From the IMG/VR virus record IMGVR_UViG_2721755496_000003, positions 1 to 46,253 of that record: 46,253 nt of DNA. One strand, given 5' to 3'. Both the position numbers and the translations under genes were made by a program. Source of the DNA: a virus. Taxonomy: Duplodnaviria; Heunggongvirae; Uroviricota; Caudoviricetes. A model generated the notes under the pieces. That model was not told where the DNA came from and did no database searches. It saw only the letters and a list, made by a program, of their open reading frames with translations. This document shows, in pieces, positions 21,824-24,575 of the stretch; within the stretch, counting starts at the first letter, position 1, and each line of letters starts with the position of its first letter.

Positions 21824-22303
21824 ATGCTTAATCTTTACATCACGCATTCTGATTTATCGCCTCCAGATTGTGTCACAAGAGAGAACAACCGGCTTAGCTC
21901 TGTTATATCCTTGCTTATTTCATCACACAATAGCGATATTATTTCCGTCACTGACTATCTTAAAAAAAATGATATCTCGCATTGTTTTTATTTCCTGTCT
22001 ACAGGGAATATACGCTTTACCACACATAACCATAGTATGATCACGGTACAGACCAAAAAAAGACCTGTTTATATAAACCACAGATCAAACAATATCTGGA
22101 CAAAACTGGTTATCAAAAAACATTTATCCGGTAGCATACCTTTTTTCCGTAGCCACTTTACTCTGTCCCAGGCAGGCATATTTAAATATGTTCTGGATGT
22201 AAACAGGAAACAATGCCAGTATTATTCAATGCAGAACCATATTTTGCATTCACAATTCATCATTCCGGTTTCTTCCACCATCGCACCGGACTGGCGATTA
22301 TGA
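21824..22303 (+). CDS. Hypothetical AT-rich protein (moron) between Rz and cos, opposite strand to the late genes
   Basis: 159-aa ORF in a markedly AT-rich island at the position lambda uses for bor; no recognisable motif. Confidence 0.3.
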   Translation: MLNLYITHSDLSPPDCVTRENNRLSSVISLLISSHNSDIISVTDYLKKNDISHCFYFLSTGNIRFTTHNHSMITVQTKKRPVYINHRSNNIWTKLVIKKHLSGSIPFFRSHFTLSQAGIFKYVLDVNRKQCQYYSMQNHILHSQFIIPVSSTIAPDWRL

Positions 22304-22456: not shown

Positions 22457-22924
22457 TTATTTCAGACACTGAGTACGGATATATGCCTGCGCCCCTTCCA
22501 GTTGCGCCTGCATCGTTTTCAACTTGTCTCTGAGGGTGAAATAATTCCATTCAGCGGCGTCTGCCAGTCTGGGGCGGGCTGCATTATCCATGCTGGCGGT
22601 TCCGGTGGTTTTGTCTGTGGTGGACACGCAGGTGGCGTTGACGCGCAGGCGCTTACGGCCAGCGGCAACATCAGCGCGCAGATTTTCATTTTCAGCTCTC
22701 GCATCGGCTAACTCCTTTGTATATTTTGCATCGAGTGCAGCAACATCACGCTGGCGCTGCTGCATGTCAGTAATGGTTGCATTCGCTTTATCCAGTTCAC
22801 TGGCTTTGTTATCGCGCTGCGCTTTGTAGGTAATGGCGTTATCACGGTAATGGTCTGTTGCCAGCCACAGAGCACCACAGGACGCCAGCAGTACAGTAAT
22901 CACCACATACAGAACACTGCTCAT
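22457..22924 (-). CDS. Rz: Inner-membrane spanin component Rz
   Basis: N-terminal TM helix then ...HYRDNAITYKAQRDN...ITDMQQRQRDVAALDAKYTKELADA... matches lambda Rz. Confidence 0.8.
   Translation of the reverse strand: MSSVLYVVITVLLASCGALWLATDHYRDNAITYKAQRDNKASELDKANATITDMQQRQRDVAALDAKYTKELADARAENENLRADVAAGRKRLRVNATCVSTTDKTTGTASMDNAARPRLADAAEWNYFTLRDKLKTMQAQLEGAQAYIRTQCLK
22519..22704 (-). CDS. Rz1: Outer-membrane lipoprotein spanin Rz1, embedded in the +1 frame of Rz
   Basis: Lipobox (LAVSAC), Pro-rich, ends ...PPAWIMQPAPDWQTPLNGIISPSE as in lambda Rz1. Confidence 0.65.
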   Translation of the reverse strand: MRELKMKICALMLPLAVSACASTPPACPPQTKPPEPPAWIMQPAPDWQTPLNGIISPSETS

Positions 22925-22931
22925 ATCACCG

Positions 22932-23063
22932 TCACCCCAGCAACCCGGATAAAGTCAATGCTCGCCAGGCCGTGGAAAGAAAAAGAGCAACCAGCATTAC
23001 TGACAATGAAATGCCGACAATTACACAGAGGACCTGCGCCAGTTTTATGAGTTTGTCTGGCAT
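22932..23063 (-). CDS. Small hydrophobic peptide (43 aa, one predicted TM helix) between R and Rz
   Basis: ATG at 23063-23061; MPDKLIKLAQVLCVIVGISLSVMLVALFLSTAWRALTLSGLLG; stop 8 nt before the Rz start; not in ORF track (below 60 aa). Confidence 0.25.
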   Translation of the reverse strand: MPDKLIKLAQVLCVIVGISLSVMLVALFLSTAWRALTLSGLLG

Positions 23064-23065
23064 GC

Positions 23066-23254
23066 TTACCCCTTAATTGCGGTAATTAACTGTGATACCC
23101 CCCATAAAAACGGGATGATCCAGACCAGCAGAAACTTCCAGTTTGGTAATTGGCCAATCATGAGTCGCAACTCCCTAATCAGTTTGCTAAAATCAATCAA
23201 GGCAGCCTCCCATAACTTACTGCCATAAACACAAAACCCCGTTTGCGCTAACAA
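23066..23254 (-). CDS. Small membrane protein between R and Rz (62 aa from a TTG start, or 31 aa from ATG at 23161 with a GGAG RBS)
   Basis: C-terminal hydrophobic helix KFLLVWIIPFLWGVSQLITAI; GGAG 9 nt upstream of the internal ATG. Confidence 0.25.
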   Translation of the reverse strand: MLAQTGFCVYGSKLWEAALIDFSKLIRELRLMIGQLPNWKFLLVWIIPFLWGVSQLITAIKG

Positions 23255-23270
23255 TCGGGGTTTTTACTTT
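23228..23270. terminator. Bidirectional intrinsic terminator-like hairpin downstream of R
   Basis: aaaaccccg-N14-cggggttttt with A-tract upstream and T-tract downstream. Confidence 0.35.
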
Positions 23271-23354
23271 TATTCACTTACGCTTTGCCATTTCGCAGGA
23301 TTTCGTGTTATCCGCCCGCGTTGGCCAACGTCATTTTTCAGCAGAACATTCTGC

Positions 23355-23888
23355 TTATCTGTCGATACTCCAGCACGCCAGCGCGCTCTCCTGGTCACGC
23401 CGCGATACCTGCCCGTAACAGTTATTTGAGCGGTTCCGACAGTCCCTGCCGCCGTCATATATCCATCGGCGGATTTCAGCACATGCACCTTTCCGGTCTC
23501 CGGCGTTCAGCTTCCGGTAAAACATTGAGGTGAAGCATTTCGAAGGCCCGATGTTGTACGGACAGAATGACGCGATGCCCGCTTTCTGGGGTTCGGTCAG
23601 TGGCACTTTGATGTTTTTCTCCACCCACGCCAGCGCCCTGTCGCGTTCAATGGCATTAACCTGAGCGCATTTTTCCTTCGTCAGCTTCATGCCGGGGACT
23701 ACTGGTCTGCCATCCACCCGGGTGGCACCACGGCAGATGGTCCAGATACCTGCGCCATCACGGTATGCCGTAGTGTGGTTGCCTTCTTTTTCATCCAGAA
23801 ACTGGTCAAGGATTTCAGGCGCAGAAGCCCCTGCGGCAATCAGCGCCAGAACGGCAGCCGACAGGCCGTATCTGATTTTTGTGTTCAT
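23355..23888 (-). CDS. R: SAR endolysin (family-24 lysozyme-type muramidase with N-terminal signal-anchor-release helix)
   Basis: N-terminal hydrophobic LSAAVLALIAAGASA then EGNHTTAYRDGAGIWTICRGATR lysozyme motif; resembles phage 21/933W R. Confidence 0.8.
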   Translation of the reverse strand: MNTKIRYGLSAAVLALIAAGASAPEILDQFLDEKEGNHTTAYRDGAGIWTICRGATRVDGRPVVPGMKLTKEKCAQVNAIERDRALAWVEKNIKVPLTEPQKAGIASFCPYNIGPSKCFTSMFYRKLNAGDRKGACAEIRRWIYDGGRDCRNRSNNCYGQVSRRDQESALACWSIDR

Positions 23889-24005
23889 GGGGATTTATAG
23901 TTTTTTAATCTCTTGATATGTTAAGTATATAATCCAACACTCATGGCAGGTCTCATAAACATATCCCTTGAGACACAACAGATAACAACAAATGAGGCCT
24001 TATAA

Positions 24006-24320
24006 ATGAACAGTAAAGAAAGTTTGCGCAGAAAATTTTTACAACTAATGACAGAAAACGTTAAATCAGAGTTACTTCTTCAGATGGCGGACAATAACGA
24101 AGTAACGAGCAGCATTCTTGCAGACCCTTACGGTAAACTCTCACATAAAACGCTGGATATTATTACCACAACACTAACACCACTTATGCTTCAACGGCTG
24201 AAACATAATATCAACGCATGGGTTAATGAAGAATTAAGTCCTCCCTGCTTATGGGATTCTCGTTACGCATGTCAGCAAAAAATGCGAATTTTCAACTTAC
24301 TATCACCAAAGCTCAGGTAG
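24006..24320 (+). CDS. Hypothetical 104-aa protein inserted between holin and endolysin on the opposite strand
   Basis: AT-rich ORF with GAGG 8-11 nt upstream of the ATG; no recognisable domain. Confidence 0.35.
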   Translation: MNSKESLRRKFLQLMTENVKSELLLQMADNNEVTSSILADPYGKLSHKTLDIITTTLTPLMLQRLKHNINAWVNEELSPPCLWDSRYACQQKMRIFNLLSPKLR

Positions 24321-24575
24321 CCATAAAATCCTGCCCTTCATGGCATACAGGATATCAATGGAATCACAATGACCGCCTCTTGCACAGCTGTGTCCCTGAC
24401 ACCCCGACAACTCAAATTTTCAGTATCTTCTGCTATCTAAAGAGAAAGCATACAAAGTCAAGGACCTTTCATCACATCCTGTTATTGATTGCCTGTTACC
24501 TTTGCATACCTTAGGGAACGTTTTTTCAGTTAGAAATATTCATTTTACAACCAGTTCGTATTTTTTATTCATCGA

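Follow-up and report, generated by a model that had tools for sequence, protein, structure and literature searches.

Lambdoid phages carry extra genes, present or absent at one place among related phages, in or next to their lysis regions. The closest cases are so-called morons: bor of lambda, on the opposite strand downstream of Rz, and the porin genes nmpC of DLP12 and lc of PA-2, which lie near the lysis region between Q and S. In lambda, the late transcript runs across bor, and such crossing of opposite-strand morons is normal for lambdoid late operons. In the Qin prophage of K-12, the place between an S21-type holin and lysozyme R is filled by ydfR, of the DUF1327 family (essQ-ydfR-rrrQ). 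YdfR is reported to bind the catalytic (N-terminal) half of RNase E, and possibly RNA as well (PMC13232886); DUF1327 is mentioned in one paper, in passing. A further parallel is the "ant moron" slot of P22, where one position in the late operon undergoes high gene flux and the alternative contents include degraded and opposite-strand genes (PMC2629481).

Here, we analyze the lysis region of a 46,253-nucleotide stretch of caudoviral DNA from a lambdoid prophage, which we call the window. Its four lysis genes, S, R, Rz, and Rz1, are all full length (Table 1). The translation of R shows a Gly/Ala-rich, SAR-type N-terminus and an E-x8-D-x5-T motif. The counterparts of S and R at homologous E. coli loci are annotated as a class II holin family protein and as rrrQ/lysozyme, respectively. 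Exactly 687 bp (23889-24575) separate S from R, and this gap contains one long open reading frame (ORF), on the strand opposite to the late operon, plus two pseudogene fragments. The gap is AT-rich, with a GC content of 0.33 between R and the ORF, 0.38 in the ORF, and 0.39 in the spacer that follows it, versus 0.56 in R and 0.54 in S. The original prediction that an AT-rich, opposite-strand 104-aa ORF splits the holin and endolysin genes is thus correct in every feature and position. Its reading of the gap as the simple insertion of one gene does not hold, as the content is better described as a two-gene module minus one.

Table 1. Coordinates of the lysis genes and of the features found between S and R in the window.
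Feature	Position	Strand	Details
Spanin gene Rz	22457-22924	-	Downstream of R
Spanin gene Rz1	22519-22704	-	Downstream of R
Lysozyme R (endolysin), 177 aa	23355-23888	-	PF00959, 3e-25; downstream cassette member
Upstream region travelling with the ORF, 117 bp	23889-24005	+	TATAAT, inverted repeat, GAGG
104-aa ORF, PHROG 1853 family	24006-24320	+	ATG start; GAGG at 23994-23997, 8 nt before ATG
Decayed remnant of partner C-terminal domain (PHROG 1085 C-terminal part)	24281-24499	-	Core 24368-24499; at least 4 in-frame stops
YdfR/DUF1327 5'-end remnant	24540-24572	-	MNKKYELVVK then stop; begins 3 nt after S stop codon
S21-type class II holin S, 71 aa	24576-24791	-	PF04971 Phage_holin_2_1, 7e-33; upstream cassette member

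Several neighboring features of the region are also of note. A second split separates R from Rz, which lie 430 bp apart (22925-23354). Two minus-strand ORFs occupy this interval, neither with a Pfam match: a hydrophobic, membrane-like ORF of 43 aa (22932-23063), annotated as hypothetical in strain A39, and one of 62 aa (23066-23254). Between Rz and the terminase genes, a second AT-rich opposite-strand gene (21824-22303, +; GC about 0.35 to 0.37) encodes a 159-aa DUF1398 (YdfO-like) protein (PF07166, 3.6e-21); the equivalent place in K-12 Qin holds ydfO/ynfO. At 24869-25388 (-), the longest DUF826 ORF (147 aa), which starts with GTG at 25312, extends over the 3' end of a DUF1378 ORF (25200-25388). 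The Pfam match of this ORF begins at residue 47 and its annotation in strain A39 is 101 aa, so the true DUF826 start is probably internal.

The 104-aa ORF is a real gene under purifying selection. Compared with seven homologous loci, it gives pairwise dN/dS values of 0.13 to 0.2 for the closer pairs. Relative to the O157-type copy, 3.5% of its sites differ, versus 11.1% in the 5' intergenic region and 8.8% in the 3' spacer; the ORF is therefore conserved three times better than its surroundings (Fisher test against both flanks, P = 0.002). Of the 11 differences within the ORF, six fall at third codon positions. In all 79 IMG/VR loci, as in the E. coli copies that we examined, the frame is unbroken. 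Automated annotation (PGAP) places the start 14 residues downstream, giving a 90-aa product. However, the omitted N-terminal residues are open and conserved in all relatives; the segment (MNSKE..LRRKFLQL) is kept in full-length members that are 63 to 78% identical, and the frame from the upstream ATG is also open in the O145 and O157 copies. The correct length is 104 aa, a point not noted before.

The ORF is already cataloged. Its residues 1 to 102 match positions 57 to 158 of the 159-position PHROG 1853 profile (3.4e-45, 154.9 bits), a phage protein family without an assigned function whose RefSeq label is "hypothetical protein". It is a common accessory gene in a known variable slot. There are 17 homologs among 5.8 billion clustered proteins, and all named ones come from E. 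coli. A profile search of 1.84 billion cluster representatives returned only 20 matches, comprising small proteins of the same family and one spurious repeat protein, and no relatives were found across 185,579 species-representative genomes. In these sequence collections, the family is tiny and confined to E. coli. Searches of the literature for ECs1097, WP_000138558, BAF34038, and phrog_1853 found no paper and no report of expression, and a study of expression in Phi24B lysogens does not cover the gene.

The predicted product is a soluble, basic, all-helical small protein of the cytoplasm. It has a mass of 12.1 kDa, a pI of 9.3, and no hydrophobic segment (maximum 19-residue Kyte-Doolittle score 0.52; GRAVY -0.38), and its AlphaFold2 model comprises six helices (pLDDT 80, pTM 0.64). 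The homology and structure searches proposed with the original prediction placed the protein in PHROG 1853 but yielded nothing further: there was no Pfam match at E ≤ 0.1 and none in NCBIfam or PADLOC, the best hit of a PDB sequence profile search was a designed protein (E = 0.05), and no fold match to the modeled product was found. When 12 family members were compared with Pfam at E ≤ 10, only scattered single matches appeared, none of them to PF07041.

Three candidate identities were rejected on these grounds. An antiholin or holin-like regulator does not fit a protein that has no transmembrane domain, a soluble predicted model, and no match to a holin family. A component of a known toxin-antitoxin or anti-phage system is not indicated either, as PADLOC, NCBIfam, and Pfam gave no match and the partner, in loci that have one, is convergent and not cotranscribed. 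Membership of YdfR/DUF1327 (PF07041) is rejected because of the missing Pfam match, and DUF1327 itself survives only as a 10-codon remnant elsewhere in the gap. Our best guess is that the protein is a host- or phage-directed binding factor that acts on other proteins independently of a partner that has been lost.

Evidence of that lost partner is preserved in the spacer. Immediately after S, the codons ATG-AAT-AAA-AAA-TAC-GAA-CTG-GTT-GTA-AAA-TGA encode a decapeptide that is 83 to 90% identical to the first 10 to 12 residues of the DUF1327 proteins of PhiR5_1, Stx2_EH2201, and Stx2 phage 86 (tblastn). Toward R, DNA homology to PhiR5_1 and Stx2_EH2201, which have a DUF1327 gene in this slot, breaks off at 23925/23926; toward S, it begins again at 24537. 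Farther from S, a stop-riddled segment aligns over 73 aa with a 213-aa protein of a related locus, L013 (32% identity, 29.3 bits, tblastn), a score reached by none of 2000 dinucleotide shuffles (maximum 25.0). A profile of the partner C-terminus also detects this segment (17.9 bits, E = 7e-7), in the remnant frame only, all other frames scoring below 0. The trace corresponds to the most conserved part of the partner C-terminal domain, and its 3' end overlaps that of the ORF, as in intact relatives. It diverges by 8.8% from the O157 copy, near the ORF dS of 0.097. In E. coli genomes, the spacer occurs only alongside the ORF and nowhere else.

Intact versions of the arrangement exist in relatives whose ORF is 49 to 78% identical to that of the window. 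There, S is followed by a gene of 189 to 268 aa on the same strand, then by a convergent ORF of 104 to 106 aa, and then by R, with the two 3' ends abutting or overlapping (by 21 bp in L009). This order is found in loci L005 to L010, in Stx2 phage 86, and in the Stx2a phages of strain 12E129. Pfam has no domain for the partner, which covers positions ~117 to 296 of PHROG 1085, the first ~112 positions of which are DUF1327. A partner search found 176 proteins, all from E. coli or Shigella, many of which are "YdfR family proteins" of 287 to 333 aa that combine a DUF1327 N-terminus with a partner-type C-terminal extension. The AlphaFold2 model of the partner (pLDDT 52.8) was below the level useful for a fold search. 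The 10-codon start, the stop-riddled C-terminal trace, and the intact relatives together indicate that the gap once held a two-gene module, of which the late-strand gene was destroyed and the opposite-strand gene kept. The pseudogenized YdfR-family partner has not been noted before. YdfR itself, the one lead to a function in this neighborhood, is no longer encoded in the window.

Another close comparison is with Stx2 phage 86 (AB255436) and the Stx2a phages of 12E129, in which tblastn finds a 104-aa homolog (orf6 in phage 86) that is 52% identical to the ORF, divergent from R, and in the same position and orientation (S - orf5 - orf6 - R). They differ from the window in that their YdfR-family partner (orf5), of 268/213 aa, is intact. 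The likeness to K-12 Qin is one of place, as the window retains the first 10 codons and a decayed long-form C-terminal piece of the gene found there; in contrast to ydfR, however, its intact gene is not DUF1327, has no sequence relationship to it, and is encoded on the opposite strand.

The pairing admits another reading. The 104-aa protein might be a cognate inhibitor, like an immunity protein or antitoxin, of the partner C-terminal domain, and in the window an orphan retained since co-resident or incoming lambdoid phages supply related partner proteins. The two genes are adjacent, convergent, and sometimes overlapping, and they co-occur in every diverged lineage of the S-R slot (ORF 49 to 66% identical to that of the window), which could reflect functional coupling instead of autonomy. 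They also diverge together (in L081, ORF identity is 49% and partner identity 40 to 42%), and EHEC genomes are rich in S/R-type prophages, with up to 15 places per genome. Nevertheless, convergent genes form no operon, and the partner belongs to the late operon, which is silent in lysogens. Purifying selection on the ORF also persists where the partner is absent, both among window-type loci and next to the porin and PerC genes described below, and no PADLOC or toxin-antitoxin family was matched. We consider this reading unlikely. A wider proposal is that the small protein and the long-YdfR C-terminal domain form a previously unrecognized two-component module of the lysis cassette, one gene being expressed late, with the lysis proteins, and the other in the lysogen, from the opposite strand. 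In that case, the small protein would neutralize partner-type proteins of co-resident or superinfecting phages, or gate lysis or an RNase E-directed activity. Although we regard this proposal as quite unlikely, it would account for the survival of the orphan in about one-ninth of the complete E. coli genomes, the majority of them EHEC.

In S21/R-type lambdoid and Stx prophages, the junction of S and R is a polymorphic slot, used recurrently by accessory genes. In 933W, S and R lie 4 bp apart and the slot is empty, while many Stx1 and Stx2c phages have a 114-aa DUF1327 gene there, and PhiR5_1 has a 211-aa DUF1327 protein plus an opposite-strand ORF of 86 aa. The latter (L003, 2701-2961, +) has the same R-proximal position as the 104-aa ORF and overlaps the 3' end of the DUF1327 gene; it belongs to PHROG 2572, which is labeled DUF1823, and matches that Pfam family only at E = 0.023. 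A relationship between the two small ORFs was rejected (hhalign probability 0.2%). The premise that holin and endolysin genes normally abut is true of ~39 of 48 phage records in a spread sample, but ~9 of the 48 have inserts, as does K-12 Qin, and the gap studied here recurs widely in E. coli genomes. The comparison of junctions in related phages revealed deposited genomes, those of Stx2 phage 86 and of PhiR5/PhiR12, that share this layout or have an analogous one.

Of 5426 complete E. coli genomes, 627 have the whole 687-bp gap at 93 to 99% identity; these are mainly O157:H7, O145, O103, and O111, and mostly EHEC. The 79 IMG/VR loci, which include many near-identical prophages and are not independent, comprise 52 of the partner-less window type (ORF 96 to 99% identical), 26 with the partner, and one contig whose length does not allow a decision; in every locus that includes the flanks, the ORF is located between R and S. 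In Sakai, the copy is ECs_1097, between ECs_1096 (R) and ECs_1100 (holin) in prophage Sp4, adjoining pchA. The pchA-Rz-R-ORF-holin segment of Sp4 (NC_002695.2, 1183365-1186375) has an inverted orientation compared with the remaining prophage and is flanked in O157:H7 by IS629/IS1203 and ISEc8; the SS17 holin is truncated beside an IS.

These surroundings bear on the view that the ORF is a nonfunctional leftover in a crippled cassette, with R uncoupled from S. The gap does contain two pseudogene fragments, the O157:H7 segment does lie within an IS-disrupted, rearranged prophage (Sp4 of Sakai; SS17), and the gap has no DNA match among 50,697 phage records. Such a leftover would not be expected to show dN/dS well below 1 or to be intact in every IMG/VR locus and E. 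coli copy examined, nor would a crippled cassette be expected to have all four lysis genes full length, as in the window. Furthermore, homologous or analogous split cassettes occur in deposited phages with named propagation hosts (PhiR5/PhiR12 and Stx2 phage 86). This view is highly improbable, and the arrangement is that of an ordinary accessory-gene slot, with no indication of a defective or unusual lysis mechanism.

Outside the S-R slot, the ORF is found in two other genomic contexts. In Logan contigs L019 (4001-5823) and L020 (1608-3430), a copy with 71% identity immediately precedes a 370-aa porin gene in the same orientation. The order there is Q (-), then ORF (+) and porin (+), with the ORF divergent from a holin_8/holin_3_7/GH108 cassette (-). 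This position, between the Q antiterminator and the lysis cassette, resembles that of nmpC in DLP12 and lc in PA-2. In the second context, at a prophage end, the neighbors of a 72%-identical copy are a PerC gene and an R stub. In the porin-context loci (L019 to L021), homology to the window covers precisely 23888-24319, corresponding to the upstream region and the ORF; in the PerC-context loci (L016 and L017), it extends from 23775, inside the R stub, to 24338. The ORF and its upstream region form a discrete unit that moves independently.

The upstream region contains conserved signals. A -10-like TATAAT (23928-23933), preserved as TA[TC]AAT in all seven aligned loci and across three genomic contexts, is preceded at a 17-nt spacing by a weak -35 element (TTAATC, 3/6), and a relaxed promoter scan of the region gives a 9/12 match. 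The leader also holds an inverted repeat, GTCTCA-N13-TGAGAC (23950-23974, +), ~17 nt downstream of TATAAT. It is kept in six of seven homologous loci in the three contexts, with one compensatory change from G-C to A-T, and could be an operator or a 5'-UTR hairpin. On the other strand, the first ~37 bp of the upstream region form the region immediately upstream of the R start, and homology to phages without the ORF ends at their edge, at 23925/23926. The orf6 homologs of Stx2 phage 86 (L012, ~2390-2430) and L013 differ from the window here, as a GC-rich hairpin plus T-run (CGCCAG..CTGGCG TTTTT) replaces the TATAAT block. This structure, on the ORF strand and upstream of the orf6 homolog, is terminator-like and faces transcription that exits R antisense.

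A standard scan of both strands of the whole gap detected no promoter and no terminator. The search for a hairpin plus T-run after the ORF was likewise negative, and no terminator-like hairpin was found on the minus strand of the gap. For R, the original prediction offered either a separate promoter or read-through across the antisense gene. The first was rejected, as the gap contains only 8/12 matches, the level expected by chance in AT-rich DNA. With no convincing promoter for R and no minus-strand terminator-like hairpin, read-through is the most economical account of R expression.

The stretch from the ORF stop to S is free of terminator-like sites, which also suits a reading in which the antisense transcript is itself the main functional product. 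Transcription from the ORF promoter into S would collide or pair with late mRNA, and so damp leaky holin and endolysin expression in lysogens or tune the timing of lysis. The unit does always occupy the strand opposite to that of the late operon and diverge from a lysis gene, which is R here and holin_8 in L019 and L020. The dN/dS values, however, reflect constraint at the level of protein and show selection on the peptide itself, as does the share of differences at third codon positions. The spacer toward S evolves at about the neutral rate, and the PerC context has no downstream lysis gene. The gap also has no Rfam match, and its spacer folds no better than shuffled sequences (z = +1.2). We regard this reading as very unlikely.

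We favor, with moderate confidence, the explanation that the gap is one state of an accessory slot, in which the ORF is an independently transcribed moron and R is expressed by read-through of the late operon. The ancestral slot held the convergent 104-aa gene together with a long YdfR-family gene that ran with the late operon and joined a DUF1327 N-terminus to a conserved C-terminal domain. In the lineage of the window, the YdfR-family gene was then destroyed, leaving 10 codons and a decayed C-terminal fragment, while selection kept the 104-aa gene. We infer that this gene is probably transcribed in the lysogen from its own sigma-70 promoter, with the conserved TATAAT, antisense to the silent late operon. 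Upon induction, the Q-antiterminated late transcript from upstream of S would cross the gap into R, Rz, and Rz1. If the late transcript runs through in this way, lysis needs no separate promoter for R.

Position, composition, patchy distribution, and a self-contained upstream region all fit the definition of a moron (PMC2629481). The gene is present in some related phages and absent from others at the same position, and the GC content of its segment (0.33 to 0.39) is unlike that of the flanking phage genes (0.54 to 0.56). As with other lambdoid morons, the ORF itself is AT-rich (0.38 versus 0.55) and lies on the strand opposite to a late operon that must be transcribed across it, and one of its copies directly precedes a prophage porin gene. 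In contrast to Bor and the porins, the product has no signal peptide, lipobox, or membrane segment, and is thus not an envelope protein of their kind. The unit also departs from a textbook moron in its weak promoter and terminator signals, of which the -10 element alone stands out. The P22 slot is comparable in its possible side effects on read-through into a downstream late gene, although it belongs to a different phage group, precedes the tailspike gene, and holds unrelated genes (PMC2629481).

The possibility that S-[ORF]-R is the norm of this phage family, with a known function for the ORF, is realized only in part: the arrangement is common, but the searches assigned no function to the ORF. 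For annotation, the ORF should be called at 104 aa and the spacer marked as two YdfR-family pseudogene fragments. The locus also defines one tiny, E. coli-restricted orphan family, maintained by selection and present in about 12% of the complete genomes of the species, the majority of them EHEC. Should its product have host or phage targets in the lysogen, the gene would join the uncharacterized prophage cargo of pathogenic E. coli.
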